IMG/VR virus record: IMGVR_UViG_3300020042_005038
Span: 1 to 27,824 of that record
Direction: 5' to 3' (one strand)
Source: a virus
Lineage: Duplodnaviria > Caudoviricetes
Length of the DNA: 27,824 bases
Made by a program: the position numbers and the translations under genes. Positions 2,389-23,743 of the stretch are shown in pieces. Position 1 is the first letter of the stretch, and the number at the start of each line of letters is the position of its first letter. The notes under the pieces were generated by a model. That model made no database searches, was not told the origin of the DNA, and worked only from the letters and a program-made list of their open reading frames with translations.

Positions 2389-4889
2389 CATATTATTCAA
2401 GACGGCAACTTGAGGCTCTTGGCGAGCCGTTAGGTGATTCAGTTACCCGCAAAGAAGGCGGGCGAATTGTCTATGGCGGCGGCGGTTCTGGTGGCGGTGG
2501 TGGTGGCACTCCTCCGCCTCAACAAAATACTTCCTACAACACTAATATCCCTGAGTATGCAAAGCCTTATGTAACAACTATGTTGGAAGCAACTCAGAAA
2601 CAACTGTTTAATATGGACGGTTCGGATATTACTGGATTTAGAGGATATAAACCCTATAGTACTGATGTAAACAACTACTTTGCTGGTTTTTCTCCTTTAC
2701 AACAACAAGCACAAACTAGTGTAAAAGGACTACAGACTCCTGGACAATTTGGCGATGCTACTACTTTAGCTGGCGCAGCTGGTTTAGGATCTTTAGGTGC
2801 AAGTCAACAATATGCAAGGAACGTAACTGATCCTTCAATGATGCAATCGTATATGTCGCCGTACCAACAAAATGTTACCGACATTGCCAAGATGAATGCT
2901 GTGCGTGAAGCGCAGATAGCACAAAATACTCAAAACCTTGGGGCGGCTCGTCAAGGGACTTATGGTGGGGCTAGGCAAACTCTTATGCAAGCCGAGCGTG
3001 AAAAGAACTTACTGTCTAATTTATCTAACATTCAAGCACAAGGTTCACAATCTGCATTTGATAGAGCGATGCAAGCGCAACAGTTTGGTTCTACTTTAGG
3101 TATACAAGGCTATGGACAAGCTGGACAAGCTGCTTCTACTTTAGGACAACTTGGTGGAGCACAACTCGGTGCTCAAAGAGATATTATTGGTTTACAAAAT
3201 CAAATGGGTGGGCAACAACAAGCGCTTGAGCAAGCTAAGATTAATCAAGCTATCCAAGACTATTCAACACAACAACAGTACCCACTGATGCAGTTGGGCA
3301 TGATGTCTAATATGTTGCGTGGTCTACCCATGCAAGCAACTACTACGCAAACGTATCAAGCAGCGCCCGCTCCCATTACGCAAGGTCTTGGTCTTTTGGC
3401 TGGTGCAGCTGGTGCTAGACAGGCTGGTTTGTTTGCAGAGGGGGGAACTATCAAAAGCTTAGCTTCTGGTGGTGTTGCAGGCTACGCTAATAGGGGAATG
3501 GTTCAGGCTAATCCTGATAGCTCAGTAGTTCGTGGTATCCGTCAAAAATTAATGATGATGGATGCTGACGAGTTAAATCGTGTTGCGCAAAGCAGTCCTA
3601 GCGAAGAAATTCGTGCCATGGCAATACAAATACTACAAGAGCAAAAGATTAGAGAGCAAGCTGAAGCACAAGCTCAACAGTCTATTGCCCAAGATCAACG
3701 TGGTCTACCTACCCCGGTTACGGAGCGAGTTGGTTTACCTGCCGCACCTGCTGGAGCAATGGATACACTAAATGCCGCCAGTGGCGGTATTGTGGCTTTT
3801 GCTGGAAAAGATGAGAGTTTAGTTGAAGCTCCTAATATGTCTTCAGAAGAATACGCAAAATACATAAGTGATGTTATGGGCAGCGATATTTCAATCCAAA
3901 GAAAAAGGGAAATTGCTCCAGGATTAGGGCAGGCTTTAAATCAACTTCTTAGAAAAGAAAATCCTGGTGCTTTTAATACATCACAAAGTAAAGGACTTGG
4001 TGCTACTAAAGAAGTTGCTTCTGTAAATACTCCAAATATGTTTTCAATAGACCCAGAAGAAGAAAAAAGACTTCGTCAACAATATATTGATATTTATAAA
4101 AGTCAACGTGAAGATGCGGGTGTAGGCGCACCCAAAGCTGGGTTAGCCGATATTCTTGCTCTAGAAAAAGCTGGGTTAGCTAAAGAAAGAGAGCAAGCTA
4201 GAGGGTATGACTTAATGCGCTTTGGAGCTCGTCTAGCTAGTCAAGCAGGTCCTACGTTATCCGCAGTAGCTAAAGCAGGAGAAGCAACGCTGCCTGGAAT
4301 AATTGAGTCTGAAAAAGAACTTAAAGGTCGTGAGCGTGAAATAAATAAAGGTATGGCTGAAATTAAAGAGGGTGAGCGCCTAATGAAAGTAGGTGATATT
4401 ACCGCTGGCAATGCCATGTTTGAAAAAGGTCAAGAGCGCATCAGTAAAGAAAGAGTTGCTGGTATGAAGTCTCCTGGCGAAATGCTAGCTTATGCAAATA
4501 ATTATTTAGCATCAAGAAGGGCTGCAGGGGATACACGGGACGAAAACATCATAAGAGAAGAAGGTATGAATGCTCTTCTGGGTCTTCGTGGTGCCGCTGT
4601 TAAACGTGCGGATACTGCGGCTGAAGTTGCAGCTGGTAATATTGGCAACAAGATAGTTGAAGCACATGCTGAAATTGACAAACGTTACCTTTTAAAAATA
4701 GAACTTGCTAAAAAAGAAGATAAACCAAGAATAGAAGCTGAACAAAAAGCAGAAAAAGAAAAAGCAGAAAAAATTATTAAGGGGGGTGGTACGTATGAAG
4801 CTCCTAAATTAGGCAACGTAGTAGAAAATACAAAGTCTACAAAATCTGCATCAAGTAAAGCAAACCCTGCTGATTTTGATACTAAATAA
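2385..4889 (+). CDS. Probable internal virion/DNA-ejection protein, 834 aa
   Basis: Short leader followed by a poly-Gly tract, a Gln/Gly/Ala-rich helical N-half (GTYGGARQ) and a charged coiled-coil C-half. Lies directly before the giant gene. Confidence 0.65.
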   Translation: MTYYSRRQLEALGEPLGDSVTRKEGGRIVYGGGGSGGGGGGTPPPQQNTSYNTNIPEYAKPYVTTMLEATQKQLFNMDGSDITGFRGYKPYSTDVNNYFAGFSPLQQQAQTSVKGLQTPGQFGDATTLAGAAGLGSLGASQQYARNVTDPSMMQSYMSPYQQNVTDIAKMNAVREAQIAQNTQNLGAARQGTYGGARQTLMQAEREKNLLSNLSNIQAQGSQSAFDRAMQAQQFGSTLGIQGYGQAGQAASTLGQLGGAQLGAQRDIIGLQNQMGGQQQALEQAKINQAIQDYSTQQQYPLMQLGMMSNMLRGLPMQATTTQTYQAAPAPITQGLGLLAGAAGARQAGLFAEGGTIKSLASGGVAGYANRGMVQANPDSSVVRGIRQKLMMMDADELNRVAQSSPSEEIRAMAIQILQEQKIREQAEAQAQQSIAQDQRGLPTPVTERVGLPAAPAGAMDTLNAASGGIVAFAGKDESLVEAPNMSSEEYAKYISDVMGSDISIQRKREIAPGLGQALNQLLRKENPGAFNTSQSKGLGATKEVASVNTPNMFSIDPEEEKRLRQQYIDIYKSQREDAGVGAPKAGLADILALEKAGLAKEREQARGYDLMRFGARLASQAGPTLSAVAKAGEATLPGIIESEKELKGREREINKGMAEIKEGERLMKVGDITAGNAMFEKGQERISKERVAGMKSPGEMLAYANNYLASRRAAGDTRDENIIREEGMNALLGLRGAAVKRADTAAEVAAGNIGNKIVEAHAEIDKRYLLKIELAKKEDKPRIEAEQKAEKEKAEKIIKGGGTYEAPKLGNVVENTKSTKSASSKANPADFDTK

Positions 4890-7800
4890 TGGCATACGAT
4901 ATTGAAAGTGCAAGGAAAGCAGGTCTTAGCGATGCTGAGATCAACAATTATCTTGCCTCAAAATATAAGTACAACTTAGCGGGAGCTAGGGAAGCGGGTG
5001 CTCCTGACACCGACATATTAACTCATCTGCTTGCAAAAGATAAACCTGTAGTTAAAACAACGCCAACAACAGAAGTTGCTCCTATAAGCAGTCCTGAAGA
5101 AATAACTTCGCAAGCTGAAACTTCTAGAGGTGCTTTTGCAGCACAACCAGGTGCAGGTTTAACTGAACAGCAAAAACGTCAGTTAGCAGAAGCAACTGCA
5201 AAGTACGAAAAAGAAGTGCCTTTTTTACAAAGACAGACTGATCCAATAAAAGCAGGGGTTAAAGGCTTATCAACTGTTGTTCCAAACTTAGAAATTACTA
5301 GTCTTCAAAAAGAAATTAATGCAATACAAGAAGGCAAAGTTGGTCCACGGGATCCAGTAACTGGAGAAATGACGCCTCTTCAACCAGAAGAAGCTGAAGC
5401 CGCAATTAAATCATTGCAGGCACGGCAAGCAGAAGCACAAAAGAAAGTAATGGGTGTTCAAGCAGAAGTTAGTCAAATTAGAAAAAGACCAGCCGTTGAA
5501 TTATTAAATGATGTAACAACTGCACGACAAGCATTCCAAGCATTTCAAGCCGATCCTCTTGGTATTATGGCTAGTGTATCTTTAGAAAGTTTGCCACAAG
5601 TTGCCCCTGCTCTTGTACTAGGTGCTGTAACACGTAATCCTACTGTTGGTGCATTGGCTATGGGTAGCACTAGCTTTGCTAGTGAATTGTCTTCTGGAGT
5701 TATGGAGTATTTTCAAGATAACGGAGTTGATACTAGAGACCCCGTAGCAGTAAATAAAGCTCTTAATGACCCTGTGTTATTTGCTAAAGCGTACGGGCAT
5801 GCATTAACCCGCGGTTCTATTATTGCAGTAGCAGATACGGCAGCTGCTGGGTTAGCTAGTAAGATGTTAGTGCCTAAACAATTAATAAAAAATCAATTAG
5901 CAAAAGAAGCGGTTAATATTGGTGTAGCTCAACCTACTGCACAAATAATAAGCGGTGGTGGCGGAGAAATACTTGCTCAGCTTGCTACTGAAGGTGAGGT
6001 TAAAAAACCTGGTCGAGCAGTTTTAGAAGCTGCTGGTGAAGGTCCAACTAGTTTATTAGAGACAGCAGCATTTGGCGGGCAACAAGCCTACGAACGTCTA
6101 CCCTCTACGATTGCTAAAAAAGAAGCAGAAGCTAAAGCTGTTGAAGATCAAAAGAAAATTCTTGATAAACTTACTGCTCCTGGCGCTTTAGAAAATTTAG
6201 GTCAACAATTTAACGATACTGTTGAAGGATTAAAAACTTCAATCAATCCTAAAACAACAAAAAAAGATGGGTCAGGTGGACGTTTTTATACTGAACAAGA
6301 AGCCTATGAAGCTGCAGGTAATCTTATATTGCAAGGAGGACTATTAGATGGAACTGAATCAACTATCGGTGGAACAGATCAATCAGGCGTTTCTGTGCCT
6401 GGCAAACCAATCGAAACCAACACCGGAGCTATTGACACTACCGGAGGAGACCTGGCAGCAACTGACACGACTACTACTACTGTTGGAGGCGGAGAAGGAA
6501 CTGAACTCAATACACTAGTTGCAAATCTAAAAGCTAAGTATCCTCAGTTAACAGATGAACAAGCATTAGCAAATGCTGAAGAAAGCCTACGTCAAAAGCA
6601 AATTGCTGCTCAGCAACAAGCTGCTGGTGCTGGTATACCTACTCCAACAAGCGCATTAACTGCTGCGCAAGAACAAAGAAGAACTGAATTAAAAAGCATC
6701 CTTGAGAATGAAGACTTAGGAGATAAATATACCCGTGAGCAGGGTCTTGCTTTAGTAGATGAGTTAATAGCACTAGAAAATATAGCCGAAGGCACAACCC
6801 CACCATCTATTGATACTACTGATACTACAAAAGATAAAAAACCTTCAGTTACTACAGGCAAATCTCGTGGTAGACCAATCGTTAAAAAAACTTCAGAACA
6901 AATAGCCGCTGATGCTGCGTATAAAAAACAACGCCAAGATATTGGTCGTAACGCTAGTAATGATATTAATAGGGCAGAAAAAGTTTTAACCCAAGAGGTA
7001 AATACAGAGCAAATTATTAATAATGCTGCTAACGAACAAGACGCAATATCTCAGTTATCCCAATTAAAACTGCAGCGCATAGGCGCACTTGAGACGGCAT
7101 ATCGTTTATCTGTTGATCCTGACCAAAAAAATAAAACTGCAGGTAAAAAAGCTAGTACGTTACTAAAAACAGCTGACCCCAAAGAACTTGAAACTGCTAA
7201 ACAAATATACGAGTCTAAGAAAAAAATAGGCGCACCTAGCCGTGCCGAAATTAGTGAATCCACTAACGGACAGGATAACACCGTCTTTGAAAAGTACAAC
7301 AACGCACGAAGCGCAGTAAATTGGATTGCTAACAACGGCAACCCTTTTGAAAAAATACTAGCTAGACGGTTACTTCCTTTTCTTAACGGAGTTAAGTTTG
7401 TTGTAGTAGATAGTGCAGACGATATGCCCACTGCATTCCTACGAGACAAGATGATGGGAGCAGCAGGTTTATATGTACCTGACAGAAAGACTATTTATGT
7501 AATGCGTAGCGGCGGTATTAACAATACTGTTGTGTTACACGAAGCCTTGCATGCTGCAACCGTTGCTCGTATTGATGCCTATTTAGAACTAAGAGAAGCG
7601 GGTAAACCTATCCCTGATTCTTTAGAGCGCCCCGTAGCAGAGCTTATGGCTTTGATGATACGGGCAAAAGATAACTTTGATTTGCTTTTTTCTCAGTCTT
7701 TAGAGTCTGGAGACTTAGGGTTACTTACTACTGAGATGTTAGAAATACCTAATGACGCCTTTACTGACGTTAAAGAGTTTGTAGCTTATGGTATGTCTTT

Positions 7801-10800
7801 ACCTGCCATGCAAGAGTTCCTTCTTCTTTCTCCAGGCAAACTTGCAGGTGCTCCTTCTAACTTTGTTGATAGGCTGTTTAATAAATTTGTACAAAGTATA
7901 CGTCAACTGTTTAGTATGGACGAGAAGCATACTTCTGCTCTCCAAGATTTAATTATTGTTACAAACAAATTGCTAGCTGCACCCCTACTAAAAGTTGCAC
8001 CTAGCGAACCTGTAGCAGCCAAAGCAAAACAACCTGCACCACCTAAAACACCTAAGCCACCTAAAGCTCCTAAACAATCAAAAACAGTAGAAAATATCCT
8101 TAGAGCAATTAGGCTATCAAAAACTGGTACCGAATTAAATAGGTCTATTGGTGAATTAATGTTGCAAACAAGAAATGCTAATGATGCCGTTCGGTTAATA
8201 AAAGCTGTTTTTAATTCTATAAATGTAAATAGACTACGTTTAGCAATGTTTATTTTTGATACAAATGATATTACTCGTATGGCAGGGAATCAAATTAATA
8301 ATATAAAAGTTATTAACAATGCTGTAGAAAGTATGGCTGGTATGCGTACTCGCATGATTCGTGAAATGGCAGAAAATGTAGAACCGTGGACTCACTTTAA
8401 TGCAAAATATAAAGAAGGCGGTGAAATTTTAAGTGATTTAATAAATGCTACTACGCTGTTGGAAGTTGATCCTACTAAACATCCTGACTTAGCAACTGCA
8501 TTAAAAAATGATTTAAAACTACAACAATTAGAAAAAAATATTCTTAACCCACCTATAGATCCAAAAACAAACAAACCTAAAAATGTGTCTGCGCTTAAAA
8601 AAGATAGAACAATACGTATTGACAGAATTACAGTAATTTATGAGGGTGGCGTTTATAACAATCCTGTTACTGGTGAAAAAAATAACATGGGCGGGTGGAA
8701 TAAGTTAGGTAAAATTGGTAAAGGAGAAGGACATGCCATATACAAAATGGCAAAAGACAGTTATCAAGAAACATTTAATTTGCATGAACAATTATTAAAA
8801 GAAAAAATTGCGGCTTCTAACGTACCTGGAAATATTAATGATGCGTCTACTCCAAAAGGTAAATTAATTGCGGCAATTACTAAAACTTTTCAAGAAGCTA
8901 AAACACTTGAGGTTTATTTTCCATTAATGCGTTATGGTAATTTTTGGTATAGCGTAGGTAAAGGCAAAAGTGGTGAGTTTTATATGTTTGAAAGTTCTAC
9001 TGCTCGCAATAACGCTATTGATAAACGTGTTGAAGAACTTAACAAAGCTGGAGATAAACGCACCAGAGATAAAATGATTGAGGATGGTGATATAGATCTT
9101 GGTGATGACATTCGCAAACTAAGAGAAAAGCATATTGAATCTAGCGATATGCTTAAAGAAATTTTTGCAATGCTAGATAAAAACAAAACAAATGATATTG
9201 ATGCTGTTAAAGATAACATTTATCAGATGTATTTAATGACCTTACCAGATAAAGACATCCGTCGTAAATTTGTACACCGTCAAGGCAAAACTGGTTTTAG
9301 TGCCGATACACTTCGCAATTTTATTGTTAGTCAACACACTGCTGCTAATCAATTAGCACGATTAAAATATGCGGATCAAATTCGTAATGGTATAGCTGCT
9401 GCTTATGCAGAAATATCTCAAAATCCAAATAAATTAAAATTAGCAGTATTAATTAAAGAAATTAGTGAAAGAGCACTTGCAGAAATTACGCCTAGTGTTC
9501 CAGAGGGGGGTATTAATTGGGATCAAGCTGCTGTAGTGGGTAATAAATTTGTATTCTATTGGTTACTAACTTCCCCCAAATCTGCGTTAATACAAATGAC
9601 ACAGTTAGCTACAGTTGGATTACCAACACTAGGAGCTCAATATGGCATGGCTAAAACTTTAGCAACTGCTTTTAAATACTCAGCGCTTTGGAATAAACTT
9701 GGCGTTTCTAAAACAGATAAAAATGGCAACATAATTACTGAATGGGGTCAACCTTCAATTAACGATTCTAATTATATTGCTAAACATCCTAATTTAGCAT
9801 ATAGAAAAGTATTAAAAGATGCATGGAATTTTGCTAATGACAAAGATCTTTTTATGTCTACTTATGCGTCAGATATGACTTCTATGTCTGAAGTTCCAAG
9901 CGGCACATATCATAACATTGTTAGCAGAGCTACCAGAGGAACATTTAATTTAATTGGTGGTGCGTTCCATCATGCTGAGCGTATTTCTCGTGAAATTATG
10001 TTTATGTCTAGCTTTGAATTAGCTTATGCAGATAACAAGAAAAAAGGTATGGATGACAAAACTGCATTTGATGCAGCTACTAAAAAAGCAACAAGTTTAA
10101 CTACTGATTCTTTATTTGACTATACAAATTACAATAAACCTCCAATAACAAAAACTGCTGGTGGACGAATAGCATTTCAGTTTTTGACTTACCCATTACA
10201 AATGACATCGTATTTAGTACGTAACTTCTACGGCATGCTACCGCTTTTGAATAAAGAAGAAAAAAAAGAAGCGGCTATTAAGTTTTTTGGAACTATGGCA
10301 ATGACTGGTTTATTTGCTGGCGTTACAGGGCTTCCACTATATAGTTTTATTATGGGCGTAATAGACGGTATGCGTGAATTGTTACGAGATGAAGACGAAG
10401 AAGATTACGAAAAAGATGATGAAGGTAATCCTCTTGGCAGACGCAGCACAGATTTATGGGTTAGAAACTGGTTTATTCCTAATTTTTTTGGCCCCGAAAG
10501 TAGTTTGGCACAATTTTTAGGTTTAAGCGAAGAAAACGCAAAAACATTAGCACGTGCATTTGAAATGGGTGTTATACCTGCATATACAGATTTAAACGTT
10601 GCTCCTTCTATTTCTTTAGATGGTATGTGGTTTAGAAGTGACAAACCTGCAGAAACATCTCGTGAAGCATTTGAACAATTTTTGTTAGGTCTTGGAGGAC
10701 CTCTTGTTGGTTTAGGAGGAAATATATTTGCATCAATAGACGATTTTGAAAACGGACAATTTATTAGAGGGTTTGAAAAAATTTCTCCTGCATTTCTTAA

Positions 10801-11263
10801 AGGTAGCCTTACCGCAGTAAGATTAGGTATAGAAGGTGCTACTACCACTAAAGGAGATAAATTAATGGACCCTGAATTTTATACAACTGGTAAATTATTT
10901 GCACAATCTTTAGGTTTTGGTAGCACTGAAGTAGCTCAATTACAAAAGTCTAATTTTTTAGCTAAAGAAATAGTAGTAAAAATGGAAAGTGATCGTGTTA
11001 AATTGCTTAATCGTTTTGACATAGCAATTCGTGATGGTATAGAAACTGAATCTGAAAGACAAAAAGTTATTGAAGTTTTAGAAAAGATAACCGCTTTTAA
11101 TAAAAAAAATCCAATCTCTTCTATTATGATTGAAGAAGAAGATATTATAAAATCTTTTGAAGCACGTACAAAACGTCGTGGTGAATCATATCAAGGACTT
11201 TCTGTTCCAGAAGATTTAATGCCTTACATTTATCCTTTAGTTAAAGGAACTCGTTCTCCTTAA
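4889..11263 (+). CDS. Giant internal virion/polyvalent protein with zincin-like metallopeptidase motif, 2124 aa
   Basis: TAATG coupling. Twin N-terminal repeat (YDIESARKAGLSDAEI / YNLAGAREAGAPDTDI), VVLHEALHAA with downstream EFVAYG, Pro/Lys linker, and a helical C-terminal region with hydrophobic segments. Last gene of the virion block, as large ejection proteins often are. Confidence 0.7.
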   Translation: MAYDIESARKAGLSDAEINNYLASKYKYNLAGAREAGAPDTDILTHLLAKDKPVVKTTPTTEVAPISSPEEITSQAETSRGAFAAQPGAGLTEQQKRQLAEATAKYEKEVPFLQRQTDPIKAGVKGLSTVVPNLEITSLQKEINAIQEGKVGPRDPVTGEMTPLQPEEAEAAIKSLQARQAEAQKKVMGVQAEVSQIRKRPAVELLNDVTTARQAFQAFQADPLGIMASVSLESLPQVAPALVLGAVTRNPTVGALAMGSTSFASELSSGVMEYFQDNGVDTRDPVAVNKALNDPVLFAKAYGHALTRGSIIAVADTAAAGLASKMLVPKQLIKNQLAKEAVNIGVAQPTAQIISGGGGEILAQLATEGEVKKPGRAVLEAAGEGPTSLLETAAFGGQQAYERLPSTIAKKEAEAKAVEDQKKILDKLTAPGALENLGQQFNDTVEGLKTSINPKTTKKDGSGGRFYTEQEAYEAAGNLILQGGLLDGTESTIGGTDQSGVSVPGKPIETNTGAIDTTGGDLAATDTTTTTVGGGEGTELNTLVANLKAKYPQLTDEQALANAEESLRQKQIAAQQQAAGAGIPTPTSALTAAQEQRRTELKSILENEDLGDKYTREQGLALVDELIALENIAEGTTPPSIDTTDTTKDKKPSVTTGKSRGRPIVKKTSEQIAADAAYKKQRQDIGRNASNDINRAEKVLTQEVNTEQIINNAANEQDAISQLSQLKLQRIGALETAYRLSVDPDQKNKTAGKKASTLLKTADPKELETAKQIYESKKKIGAPSRAEISESTNGQDNTVFEKYNNARSAVNWIANNGNPFEKILARRLLPFLNGVKFVVVDSADDMPTAFLRDKMMGAAGLYVPDRKTIYVMRSGGINNTVVLHEALHAATVARIDAYLELREAGKPIPDSLERPVAELMALMIRAKDNFDLLFSQSLESGDLGLLTTEMLEIPNDAFTDVKEFVAYGMSLPAMQEFLLLSPGKLAGAPSNFVDRLFNKFVQSIRQLFSMDEKHTSALQDLIIVTNKLLAAPLLKVAPSEPVAAKAKQPAPPKTPKPPKAPKQSKTVENILRAIRLSKTGTELNRSIGELMLQTRNANDAVRLIKAVFNSINVNRLRLAMFIFDTNDITRMAGNQINNIKVINNAVESMAGMRTRMIREMAENVEPWTHFNAKYKEGGEILSDLINATTLLEVDPTKHPDLATALKNDLKLQQLEKNILNPPIDPKTNKPKNVSALKKDRTIRIDRITVIYEGGVYNNPVTGEKNNMGGWNKLGKIGKGEGHAIYKMAKDSYQETFNLHEQLLKEKIAASNVPGNINDASTPKGKLIAAITKTFQEAKTLEVYFPLMRYGNFWYSVGKGKSGEFYMFESSTARNNAIDKRVEELNKAGDKRTRDKMIEDGDIDLGDDIRKLREKHIESSDMLKEIFAMLDKNKTNDIDAVKDNIYQMYLMTLPDKDIRRKFVHRQGKTGFSADTLRNFIVSQHTAANQLARLKYADQIRNGIAAAYAEISQNPNKLKLAVLIKEISERALAEITPSVPEGGINWDQAAVVGNKFVFYWLLTSPKSALIQMTQLATVGLPTLGAQYGMAKTLATAFKYSALWNKLGVSKTDKNGNIITEWGQPSINDSNYIAKHPNLAYRKVLKDAWNFANDKDLFMSTYASDMTSMSEVPSGTYHNIVSRATRGTFNLIGGAFHHAERISREIMFMSSFELAYADNKKKGMDDKTAFDAATKKATSLTTDSLFDYTNYNKPPITKTAGGRIAFQFLTYPLQMTSYLVRNFYGMLPLLNKEEKKEAAIKFFGTMAMTGLFAGVTGLPLYSFIMGVIDGMRELLRDEDEEDYEKDDEGNPLGRRSTDLWVRNWFIPNFFGPESSLAQFLGLSEENAKTLARAFEMGVIPAYTDLNVAPSISLDGMWFRSDKPAETSREAFEQFLLGLGGPLVGLGGNIFASIDDFENGQFIRGFEKISPAFLKGSLTAVRLGIEGATTTKGDKLMDPEFYTTGKLFAQSLGFGSTEVAQLQKSNFLAKEIVVKMESDRVKLLNRFDIAIRDGIETESERQKVIEVLEKITAFNKKNPISSIMIEEEDIIKSFEARTKRRGESYQGLSVPEDLMPYIYPLVKGTRSP
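6348..6518 (+). CDS. Overprinted 56-aa ORF in the +1 frame inside the 2124-aa gene
   Basis: AAGGAGGA at 6333-6340, 7-nt spacer, ATG at 6348, TAG at 6516-6518. Translation: MELNQLSVEQINQAFLCLANQSKPTPELLTLPEETWQQLTRLLLLLEAEKELNSIH. Confidence 0.65.
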   Translation: MELNQLSVEQINQAFLCLANQSKPTPELLTLPEETWQQLTRLLLLLEAEKELNSIH

Positions 11264-11265
11264 AT

Positions 11266-11290
11266 AAAAAACCCCCGCACTAGGCGGGGG
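11266..11290 (-). terminator. Intrinsic terminator of the - strand block
   Basis: CCCCCGC-ACTAG-GCGGGGG hairpin (11272-11290) followed on the - strand by T6, between convergent genes. Confidence 0.85.
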
Positions 11291-11355
11291 CAAAGAGTTT
11301 GGAAGGAGCTAACTTCCGAGGAGAAACAGACAAGCTGTTCTGTGCTCGAGTATAG

Positions 11356-11550
11356 TTAAATTCTCCAAATGCGTAAACCTTTTACTCCTTCATGGATAAC
11401 CAGCTTAAACACAACCTCTAATTTTAACCTTTTTGTAACACGTGTAATATCTTTTTTGGCAGCATCAGGGTTAAGGCAAGGTATAAAGATTGAGTACCCT
11501 ACTTTAAAATTTCTCCAATTAACGTTGTAACTAATCTTCTCTACTAGCAT
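11356..11550 (-). CDS. Small basic phage protein, possibly DNA-binding, ~64 aa
   Basis: ATG at 11550 overlaps the end of the primase gene. VGYSIFIP...GLRIWR pattern typical of small phage proteins. Confidence 0.65.
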   Translation of the reverse strand: MLVEKISYNVNWRNFKVGYSIFIPCLNPDAAKKDITRVTKRLKLEVVFKLVIHEGVKGLRIWRI

Positions 11551-22241: not shown

Positions 22242-22630
22242 AATTTACCTTTGGGGCTACCGCTTTTTACTTGCCGTTTTCCCGATGATAGTTCTGCTAG
22301 TTTTGCTTTAGCTTCTATTAGTGCTACTACTTCGGAATAACCTAATCCATCTTCTGCATCTCGTAGCAGAGTATTCATGACTCGTTTAGTAAACAGCTCG
22401 CCTTGGAGACTTTGCATCTTGTCCCATAAGGTTTTGATCTCTTTGTCGTTTAGGAATGACAACTGATCTTTGTAGTCCTTACCCCCATTAGTTCGCATTT
22501 CAACAGAGAGGAGAATGTCTCGCCATTTTGCAGGATACCCATCTCGCAGGGTAGGGATAAACTCATCAGGGTTACTGCTCATGCGTTCAAGTAATATCTG
22601 AACACCTTTGTTCATTTCAACATCTGCCAT
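22238..22630 (-). CDS. Hypothetical protein, 130 aa
   Basis: GAGGGGG RBS; overlaps both neighbours. Confidence 0.7.
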   Translation of the reverse strand: MADVEMNKGVQILLERMSSNPDEFIPTLRDGYPAKWRDILLSVEMRTNGGKDYKDQLSFLNDKEIKTLWDKMQSLQGELFTKRVMNTLLRDAEDGLGYSEVVALIEAKAKLAELSSGKRQVKSGSPKGKF

Positions 22631-22946
22631 ATGTGTCCCCCTCGTTGTTAGCCCCTGTTAATTTTTTAAGCAAACTCTCTAACAATGTTAGGTTGCTTTC
22701 ATTTATTACGACGGCAATTCCACCCTGTTTACGGATGTCTGCCATTTCTTTTTCTTGTAGTGCAGTAGGCTTATTGTCGCCTGCCTTGCACTCAATAGCT
22801 ACAAATCTTTTTGAGATGCAACAAATAATATCAGGCACACCGCTACGACCATAGCCATGGGTAGCAGGGAAGAAGTAATAAGCGTCGTAAGCCTTAAGTA
22901 GCTTGACGCATTTATCTTTTACTTTCTTTTCGGGAGTGAGTGCCAT
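22617..22946 (-). CDS. VRR-NUC-like nuclease (possible Holliday junction resolvase), 109 aa
   Basis: PEKKVK...GVPDII...FVAIECK...LQ...GG motif. Confidence 0.85.
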   Translation of the reverse strand: MALTPEKKVKDKCVKLLKAYDAYYFFPATHGYGRSGVPDIICCISKRFVAIECKAGDNKPTALQEKEMADIRKQGGIAVVINESNLTLLESLLKKLTGANNEGDTYGRC

Positions 22947-22952
22947 GCCACC

Positions 22953-22980
22953 ATAATAGCATGGTGTTGGACTTTGTCAA
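22953..22980 (-). promoter_or_regulatory. sigma70-type promoter, probably giving a leaderless mRNA
   Basis: The - strand reads TTGACA-16 nt-TATTAT with extended -10 TGn; ATG follows 6 nt later with no Shine-Dalgarno. Confidence 0.75.
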
Positions 22981-22984
22981 GGAG

Positions 22985-23130
22985 AAAATTGGGTGGAGAT
23001 GTAGATTCTCTGCCACCCTCAGAGTTAACAAGGATTCAGCTAGCCATAAAGTATTGGGGCAAACTAGCTGAAGATAAAATCCATTCGCATCTACAAGGCT
23101 ACTAAGTTCTATCTGTAATCAAACTGCCCC
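22985..23130 (-). ncRNA. Putative structured RNA: two hairpins whose loops pair with upstream segments
   Basis: Stem 23035-23043/23064-23072; stem 22991-22999/23007-23018; loop pairings 23000-23006 with 23089-23095 and 23056-23061 with 23125-23130. Confidence 0.6.
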
Positions 23131-23139
23131 CTAACATTG

Positions 23140-23574
23140 TTAGGTCTTGCTAAGATTACTAATAGCCCGATCCAAATACCATTTAGCTTTCTGTAAGTCT
23201 TCCAACTTATTGCCTTTCAAATCGGCACGACTTACATACTTCACTACATTACCTAGGTTATACCCTAGGTTCTTAGCCTCGATAAAATCAATCGTCTCAA
23301 TACCCCCTGCCTTGTAATGCGGTGGGTGGTTGACCATGTCGGCTTTGCTATGAATACTCTTGTTGGAGGTAGACACTGCTATTACTTGCATACCCTTAGT
23401 AGCTTTACGTGCGGCAGGCTTAGGCGATAGCATTTCTTTCTTGCGACGATATATCGTTTGATACACGCTAGCAATTGGAACTCCTGTTGCCTGCGATACT
23501 TCCTTAGCTTTAGCGTTAGGATTTTTTTGAACGTAACGAACTACTCTACTGCTTTTGGTGAGTTTCTTTCTCAT
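23140..23574 (-). CDS. HTH + DUF3310-like (T7 gp1.7 nucleotide-kinase-related) protein
   Basis: N-terminal AKAKEVSQATGVPIASVY HTH; C-terminal VNHPPHY..GIETIDFI..NVVKY..EDLQKAKWYL. GGAG RBS before ATG 23574. Confidence 0.8.
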   Translation of the reverse strand: MRKKLTKSSRVVRYVQKNPNAKAKEVSQATGVPIASVYQTIYRRKKEMLSPKPAARKATKGMQVIAVSTSNKSIHSKADMVNHPPHYKAGGIETIDFIEAKNLGYNLGNVVKYVSRADLKGNKLEDLQKAKWYLDRAISNLSKT

Positions 23575-23743
23575 TTGTTTCTCCGTTTTGTTGAACATAA
23601 TTAGCTAATACTTCCCTAATCTTTGCACTCTTGTTAGGGTAAGCATTGAAAAACTCTGCTACTTCTTGGCTGATGCGGATAGGTAGGTAAACCATTGCAG
23701 GCTTTACCCCCTTGCCCCTGCCTCTTTTTATTAGTTCAGTCAT
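23546..23743 (-). CDS. Ribbon-helix-helix (BrnA/Arc-like) DNA-binding protein, ~65 aa
   Basis: Basic arm RGRGKG, beta strand VYLPIRI, helices SQEVAEFF and KSAKIREVLANYV. GAGG RBS before ATG 23743. Confidence 0.65.
   Translation of the reverse strand: MTELIKRGRGKGVKPAMVYLPIRISQEVAEFFNAYPNKSAKIREVLANYVQQNGETNEKETHQKQ

Follow-up and report, generated by a model that had tools for sequence, protein, structure and literature searches.

A widespread, apparently undescribed triple-pseudoknot RNA and its candidate role as an optional gene of aquatic phages and some betaproteobacterial chromosomes

Results

An RNA at the boundary between early and replication genes

The window, that is, the whole stretch of DNA that we analysed (27,824 nucleotides), is the 27.8 kb virus record of a lake phage and is about 44% complete. 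On the minus strand, an arm of early genes (ATPase, DUF2201/vWA, DUF3310) leads into the replication genes, which encode a small endonuclease, DNA polymerase, exonuclease, helicase and primase. The RNA described here occupies the 193 nt that separate the DUF3310 stop codon from the endonuclease start codon (Table 1). The endonuclease had no match in a Pfam search; we take it to be VRR-NUC-like. The first-pass annotation had called this gap the largest between genes; one of 267 nt at 11264-11530 is larger unless a 66-aa ORF there is real. On the plus strand, the window also encodes a 2124-aa protein (4889-11263) whose C-terminal part is DarB-like. No DNA match to the window was found among cultured phages. 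The closest of these by polymerase are Rhizobium phage RHph_TM3_14A and Pseudomonas phage KPP25 (36-38% identity), and the profile model of the RNA matched none of three genomes of polymerase-closest cultured phages.

Two DNA features flank the RNA, a palindrome (CTAACAWTGTTAG) and a promoter. Both exist where the first-pass annotation had placed them. That they belong to the element was not supported: both are also found at sites of relatives that are empty of the RNA, and the palindrome can stand on either side: it lies 5' of the RNA in the window and 3' of it in L864/L879. The window holds six exact copies of the palindrome (at 22679, 23131, 23965, 24905, 25840 and 27155, all in the early region and its boundary) and eight copies with at most two mismatches, against 1.07 expected. 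Several contain or adjoin a stop codon, and relatives carry versions with one to three central bases. The copy beside the RNA is probably a DNA site, and the repeated 13-bp palindrome probably serves as an operator or as a place where early genes are shuffled. Near-consensus promoters (11/12) were seen on the minus strand at 22980-22946 and 16029-16002, the former giving the endonuclease gene a leaderless start.

Table 1. Coordinates of the RNA, its parts and its neighbours in the window.
Feature	Position	Strand	Detail
Triple-pseudoknot RNA	22988..23130	-	profile alignment, covariation
P1 5' strand, pseudoknot 1	23125..23130	-	pairs with 23061-23056 in the P3 loop
P2 hairpin	23072..23114	-	outer stem 23114-23107/23079-23072, internal loop, 2-bp inner stem 23099-23098/23088-23087
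PK2 5' strand, in P2 loop	23089..23095	-	pairs with 23006-23000
P3 hairpin	23035..23072	-	23072-23062/23045-23035; loop carries P1 3' strand
J3/4 linker, pyrimidine-rich, conserved YCC	23025..23034	-	YCC in 75/86 representatives
P4, 5-bp first stem of 3' H-type pseudoknot	23008..23024	-	23024-23020/23012-23008
P5, second stem of 3' pseudoknot	22991..23018	-	23018-23013/22996-22991; 6-7 bp in the family
Loop 3 of 3' pseudoknot	23000..23007	-	invariant unpaired A 23007, then PK2 3' strand
DUF3310 gene, upstream of RNA	23140..23598	-	final gene of early cluster; Pfam PF11753, E 1.8e-21; PHROG 236 nucleotide kinase
Small endonuclease gene, downstream of RNA	22617..22946	-	first replication gene; PHROG 93 endonuclease, E 5.8e-19
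Sigma-70-like promoter TTGACA-16-TATTAT	22953..22980	-	11/12 consensus; 7 nt ahead of next start codon
Palindrome CTAACAWTGTTAG	23131..23143	.	contains upstream stop codon; outside the RNA

Covariation supports a fold with three pseudoknots

Read 5' to 3', the RNA presents the P1 strand, hairpin P2 with a PK2 strand in its loop, hairpin P3 with a loop that pairs with P1, a pyrimidine linker and the P4/P5 pseudoknot, in all seven helices and three pseudoknots within about 145 nt. The first-pass annotation had proposed two of these crossings, and the segments that it named are all on the minus strand: GGGGCA with UGCCCC in pseudoknot 1, and UGUAGAU with AUCUACA in PK2, together with the hairpin here called P3. 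By plain folding, the window's copy of the RNA was not unusual (z -0.61; 58 of 200 shuffles folded equally well). Both crossings arose in 47 of 20000 base shuffles, with segments picked after the fact. Since the single sequence folds no better than shuffled ones, the test has to be comparative. We therefore turned to homologues. Among the 89 members that could be aligned, out of 100 loci searched with the profile model, 93.9% of 2813 cells were paired, 28 of 34 pairs showed double changes, and the covariation score was 0.521, compared with 0.134 for shuffled and at most 0.068 for slid partners. Both long-range loop pairings covary.

Helices P2b, P3 and P4 were included in the model and lean towards it, while PK2 and P5 lay outside it. 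PK2 was paired in 99.2% of cells, with double changes in four of its seven pairs, and P5 in 95-98%, with double changes in five of six. For P4 these values were 92.6% and four of five, and all five of its pairs formed in 80 of 86 representatives (the parser demanded four). P3 exceeded the 95th percentile of shuffles in 74 of the 86 and had double changes in nine of nine pairs. P1 was aligned poorly by the model (76% and 43%) and was given a separate shuffle test; it exceeded the same percentile in 60 of the 86, with 84 different helix sequences, the parser being blind to it. The weakest helix is the P2 outer stem (P2a), whose register varies (32 of 86). The P2 inner pair changes from C-G to G-C in three of the 89 members. 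About two rows of the 86-representative set are probably false matches.

At the 3' end, the first-pass annotation had drawn a third hairpin with the inner stem GAGA/UCUC. This stem was paired in 57% of cells, and its four pairs all formed in 2 of the 86 representatives; what stands there is an H-type pseudoknot, with CUCUG/CAGAG as the covarying helix. Hairpin P2 had been overlooked, and the total rises to three pseudoknots. The suggested switch pairing UAGCC/GGCUA did not hold up either: it was 59% paired, with a score of 0.114 against 0.096 for the slid control.

The sequence of PK2 varies while its pairing is kept. When we scanned with a pattern free of the 7-mer, 24 of 83 distinct sequences among the matches listed departed from the AUCUAC core, and 22 of these, several of them close kin, retained a fully complementary upstream partner. 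The 103 aligned members hold 17 strand combinations, in which the last two pairs and the preceding A never vary. Loop 3 carries A-A-U in 103/103 aligned members, a figure set in part by the search patterns, which fixed several core bases; the second A and the U were left free in the scan, yet were invariant in 83/83 of the matches listed. Among unpaired bases A23007 alone is invariant, loop C 23097 being substituted in several members. A permutation search for partners of J3/4 and of the 3' tail found none, and a z -3 signal coincided with P3. The 7 nt directly 3' of P5 (22990-22984 in the window, and their counterparts in relatives) are nearly free of G and usually begin A-C-Y (83, 73 and 97 of 100).

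On the minus strand, G-U pairs outnumber A-C pairs by 110 to 11 (5 to 6 in helices outside the model), and the RNA is always co-oriented with the marker genes. Together these comparisons favour an RNA read from the minus strand, as had been proposed. In some members P1 is absent or swapped for a local hairpin (for example L380, L437 and L461). The subfamily lacking P1 comprises L380, L382, L437, L461, L513, L545 and L554, several with a small local 5' hairpin, and because it exists, P2-PK2-P4-P5 is suggested to be the essential core. Two distant variants, L384:2489-2626 and L398:2489-2629 (both minus strand), have an altered 3' domain; that of L384 lies 3' of an SNF2-like helicase gene and ahead of a long hairpin and promoter, and in both loci tRNA genes stand 0.5-0.7 kb beyond the RNA.

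The family is widespread in aquatic phages and reaches some chromosomes

Pattern, protein-anchored and profile searches over viral, metagenome and genome collections yielded at least 258 distinct matches of at least 90 nt and at least 643 matching loci among 957 fetched, the loci being redundant. Members are 133-162 nt long (median 146) and come from uncultured aquatic phage contigs and some Limnohabitans-type chromosomes. Seven of eight genome matches fell in Limnohabitans, Rhodoferax, Comamonadaceae or Burkholderiales records; the eighth, L481, was a chance match and was rejected, as were most matches of a first pattern scan. The profile model, built in all searches from 18 near relatives, found the RNA in 4 of 139 genomes in the genus of genome G001 and in 1 of 151 of a family sample; two loci that by eye resemble members, L644 and L165, escaped it. 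Three matches that remain in some counts are probably false, namely L496, L536 and a second one in L668; the parser background was 9 matches in 2.55 Mb of shuffled loci. The window's genome holds one match, and 622 loci hold one full match each. Contigs from four RNA runs (four studies) reach parts of the flanking genes and not the RNA, and such contigs speak to presence only.

Out of 144 loci, 134 have their nearest downstream ORF on the strand of the RNA, 139 have their nearest upstream ORF there, and in 95 the endonuclease is the next gene; among 66 long loci the endonuclease follows in 51 and the polymerase in 47. Of 83 upstream stop codons, 36 fall inside P1, 41 on its 5' side and 6 on its 3' side; those outside are mostly within about 12 nt of P1, which as a rule leaves too little space for a promoter of the RNA's own. 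The signal that follows is variable, being a ribosome-binding site, a promoter or an intrinsic terminator, the last of which also occurs at empty sites. Among the matches listed, 261 distinct 3' ends were followed by a ribosome-binding site and start in 169, a -35 box in 53, a terminator and -35 box in 9 (one weak), both a -35 box and a ribosome-binding site in 4, and none of these in 26.

Other settings occur. In L539/L563 the RNA lies between exonuclease and helicase genes, and in L855 it lies 312 nt past a tRNA-Thr gene with no clear gene upstream; a tRNA within 1 kb was seen in only 2 of the 643 loci listed. No consistent mobility gene emerged from clustering of nearest-neighbour proteins. 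With chromosomal neighbours, the RNA splits a merR-type and VIT/vWA gene pair, whose homologues across the family sample are without it in 18 of 19 cases. This MerR-type HTH and VIT/vWA pair (L479, L480, L482-L486) is itself widespread (19 of 401 genomes) and in L479 lies beside an SNF2 helicase gene. An unrelated hairpin precedes the endonuclease gene at L220:2353-2382, in a lineage with another gene order.

Filled and empty sites differ by one block

To avoid choosing loci by the RNA itself, we drew a sample of 80 loci by an early marker protein from a relative that lacks it. Of the 28 distinct DUF3310 3' ends visible, 12 carried the RNA, with a terminator behind it in 7, and 16 were without it, 9 of these having a terminator of the same type. 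The filled locus L879 and the empty locus L872 are almost identical in their flanks; what separates them is the RNA and a few codons. Between the window and its empty relative L911 the difference is exactly the block between the palindrome and the -35 box of the promoter, 23130 to about 22984. In the window's lineage, the RNA stands where relatives carry a terminator hairpin.

On a phylogenetic tree built from 31 marker proteins, 21 from filled and 10 from empty loci, six changes were required, five of them forced by strongly supported branches, and a single clade of empty sites was rejected (p-AU 4.4e-7). Loci without a visible slot or a full marker were left out of the tree, as were L913 and L919-L923, and it does not separate gain from loss. 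At least five to six gains or losses among close relatives are needed on this tree. In related phages and bacteria the RNA comes and goes as a single block, much as an optional gene does, and may therefore have a function of its own.

Discussion

What our data support directly is the fold, the strand preference, the gain and loss of the RNA as a block, and its indifference to the signal downstream. Taken together, the comparisons show a real and widespread RNA, apparently undescribed, which behaves like an optional gene in aquatic phages and in the chromosomes of some betaproteobacteria. The first-pass annotation was partly supported in its interpretation. Of the functions that it listed, a decoy or nuclease-resistant RNA fits best, a ribozyme is possible, and an attenuator is a poor fit, since neither terminators nor promoters change with the presence of the RNA.

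Our tentative preference, held at somewhat less than probable, is for an accessory RNA gene that is co-transcribed with the early genes, knotted at both ends against nucleases, and active in trans through its folded core. The RNA would be transcribed at the end of, or inside, an early operon. P1/P3 would secure its 5' end, and the P4/P5 pseudoknot, clamped by PK2 to the P2 loop, would secure its 3' end, so that the knotted RNA would outlast the mRNA after endonuclease cuts and trimming in AU-rich flanks. The conserved core (P2 loop, PK2 and P4/P5 junction) would then present a shape to which a host protein binds. The RNA would most plausibly be a decoy or an inhibitor, and usefulness against some hosts only would account for the patchy presence. 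Some findings count against an accessory RNA gene. The upstream stop codon lies in P1 or mostly within about 12 nt of it, so that freeing the RNA would cut into the mRNA upstream and P1 would be unfolded by ribosomes, a placement that fits a role in cis equally well; and position is strongly conserved (endonuclease in 51 and polymerase in 47 of 66 long loci).

A bolder version, which we regard as possible and clearly short of likely, is that the RNA could be the founding member of a new class, either a triple-pseudoknot self-cleaving ribozyme or a counter-defence decoy shuffled like a protein gene. As a decoy, it could imitate the tRNA-like substrate of some host nuclease by means of its 5+6-bp 3' pseudoknot, with the A-C-Y tail and the loop-strand clamp.

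It is rather unlikely that the RNA is a small self-cleaving ribozyme of a new class, one that would cleave the polycistronic transcript between its early and replication parts and alter the stability of the resulting halves. The size, the several pseudoknots and the conserved core would suit one, as would a sporadic presence between operon genes like that described for hammerheads (PMC3088659, PMC6765202). The core, however, has just one invariant unpaired base, A23007, with loop C 23097 replaced in several members; no known family reached the Rfam cut-off in the window or 19 related loci; each locus holds a single copy; and 8 members have a terminator no more than about 30 nt further on, so that little would be left to cleave off.

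A block in cis, in which the knotted 3' domain stops 3'-5' exonucleases and either prolongs the life of the early mRNA upstream or protects the cistron downstream, is in our view unlikely. It would explain why the RNA abuts the upstream stop codon, why it lies at the 3' end of early transcripts where a terminator or promoter follows, and why in the window's lineage it replaces the relatives' terminator hairpin. Against this, many filled sites retain a terminator hairpin that is already protective and would make the RNA redundant there, the 5' pseudoknot and sequence-conserved core are more than such a block needs, and L855 has no clear upstream gene to protect.

We consider it quite improbable that the RNA regulates downstream genes in cis, whether as a put/EAR-like antiterminator or by linking termination at the upstream stop codon to access to the ribosome-binding site that comes next. 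Of the 261 ends among the matches listed, 169 have a ribosome-binding site with a start within about 45 nt, the stop codon is often inside P1, J3/4 can pair with ribosome-binding sites (mean -4.8 compared with -2.0 kcal/mol for a coding control), and put RNAs work alone on polymerase (PMC9378689, PMC8632103). J3/4, however, fits its own ribosome-binding site no better than that of another member (p 0.42, 74 members) and is retained where no such site follows. The downstream genes vary, and the unchanged terminator and promoter with or without the RNA argue against a put/EAR-type context.

We find it very improbable that the RNA is an insertion element, selfish or neutral, that is tolerated where it inserts behind stop codons, as the clean filled and empty sites in unrelated operons might suggest: the RNA is single-copy per locus and per genome searched, has no consistent mobility gene nearby, and shows deep compensatory change in its helices, which indicates selection on the fold. 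Finally, a single-stranded DNA structure (replication origin or primase site), an unlikely reading that the first-pass annotation had raised and that matches the position at the head of the replication genes, is barely credible given the 110 to 11 bias of G-U over A-C (though 5 to 6 outside the model), the constant co-orientation with genes, the dispensability of the RNA in close relatives and its presence within a chromosomal operon.

Three covariation-supported pseudoknots in about 145 nt are rare, and folds of such complexity often perform demanding biochemistry, as argued in PMC5737381. The RNA is abundant in aquatic phage data and offers natural filled and empty alleles in near-identical backgrounds. 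It is also present in the Limnohabitans genomes L479 and L483, whose records are not marked as metagenome-assembled, so that expression, cleavage and binding partners are probably directly testable in these carriers. Should it prove to be a new class of ribozyme or a counter-defence RNA of phages, either result would be notable; even with no function assigned, the RNA is a new family and a structure target, 'new' being relative to Rfam 15 and the literature searched, with part of it possibly listed in supplements.

Comparison with known RNAs

As the first-pass annotation had surmised, the RNA belongs to no family that Rfam 15 covariance models recognise. In the window region a search at E up to 5 gave one weak, unrelated match outside the RNA; 20 member loci gave none at family cut-offs; the L479 region at E up to 10 gave weak snoRNA matches only; and 11 divergent loci at E up to 0.5 gave tRNA positions only. 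The literature we searched, with thin coverage of subscription journals, held no description of it, although the alignments of two motif catalogues may list part. Its words are absent from the readable tables of the viral RNA candidates of Fremin et al. 2023 (PMC10690425; 10,006 alignments). We judge the family to be probably undescribed.

Betaproteobacteria-1 (RF02932) shares with this RNA a length of about 120-145 nt, a betaproteobacterial range and an orphan function, and it has three pseudoknots. As an identity for the RNA it was rejected, its model exceeding the cut-off in none of three genomes that carry the RNA. A true RF02932 member (L492, 64.7 bits), found in 1 of 151 genomes, has three hairpins and other conserved words, and lacks the P2-loop and loop-3 words seen here; when consensus and member were compared by eye, neither conserved words nor helix order were shared. 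The PK2 words resemble the repeat stem of Cas12a; we rejected this likeness, since the strand order is opposite and the 7-mer varies. An HDV-like fold was likewise set aside, since its helix order differs from that of this RNA.

Small self-cleaving ribozymes (hammerhead, twister, pistol, hatchet, HDV-like) are likewise compact, pseudoknotted, patchy and found between phage operon genes (PMC3088659, PMC6765202). Hammerheads flank prophage genes of varying identity, one of them 13 nt ahead of a phage helicase gene (PMC3088659), and the role proposed for ribozymes near phage genes is the processing of polycistronic transcripts (PMC6765202). This RNA differs from them in having no Rfam match, known ribozyme families included, at the cut-off in the window and 19 related loci, and a single invariant unpaired base. 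HK022 put and B. subtilis EAR are also protein-free structured RNAs within early or long operons, put acting alone on polymerase (PMC9378689, PMC8632103); put, however, is a double hairpin of about 70 nt near the promoter, while this RNA is optional and often at the far end of the operon. Further orphan RNAs with elaborate structures are ROOL, GOLLD and raiA; prophages can carry ROOL and GOLLD, and ROOL contains three pseudoknots (PMC5737381). ROOL has an average length of 581 nt and a link to tRNAs, in contrast to the roughly 145 nt, rare tRNA linkage and lack of Rfam matches found here.

The last comparison is with the pseudo-ToxI of phage PhiTE and the type III antitoxins. ToxI consists of 36-nt tandem repeats, whereas this RNA has one unit, about 145 nt long, that contains three pseudoknots; no tandem repeats of the unit were found in its own genome or in 622 loci (one match each), and no toxin-like gene was recognised beside it. 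Pseudo-ToxI is also a phage-encoded pseudoknot and sets a precedent for one acting as a mimic (PMC3594212), and this RNA could in the same manner act by its shape on a host protein.
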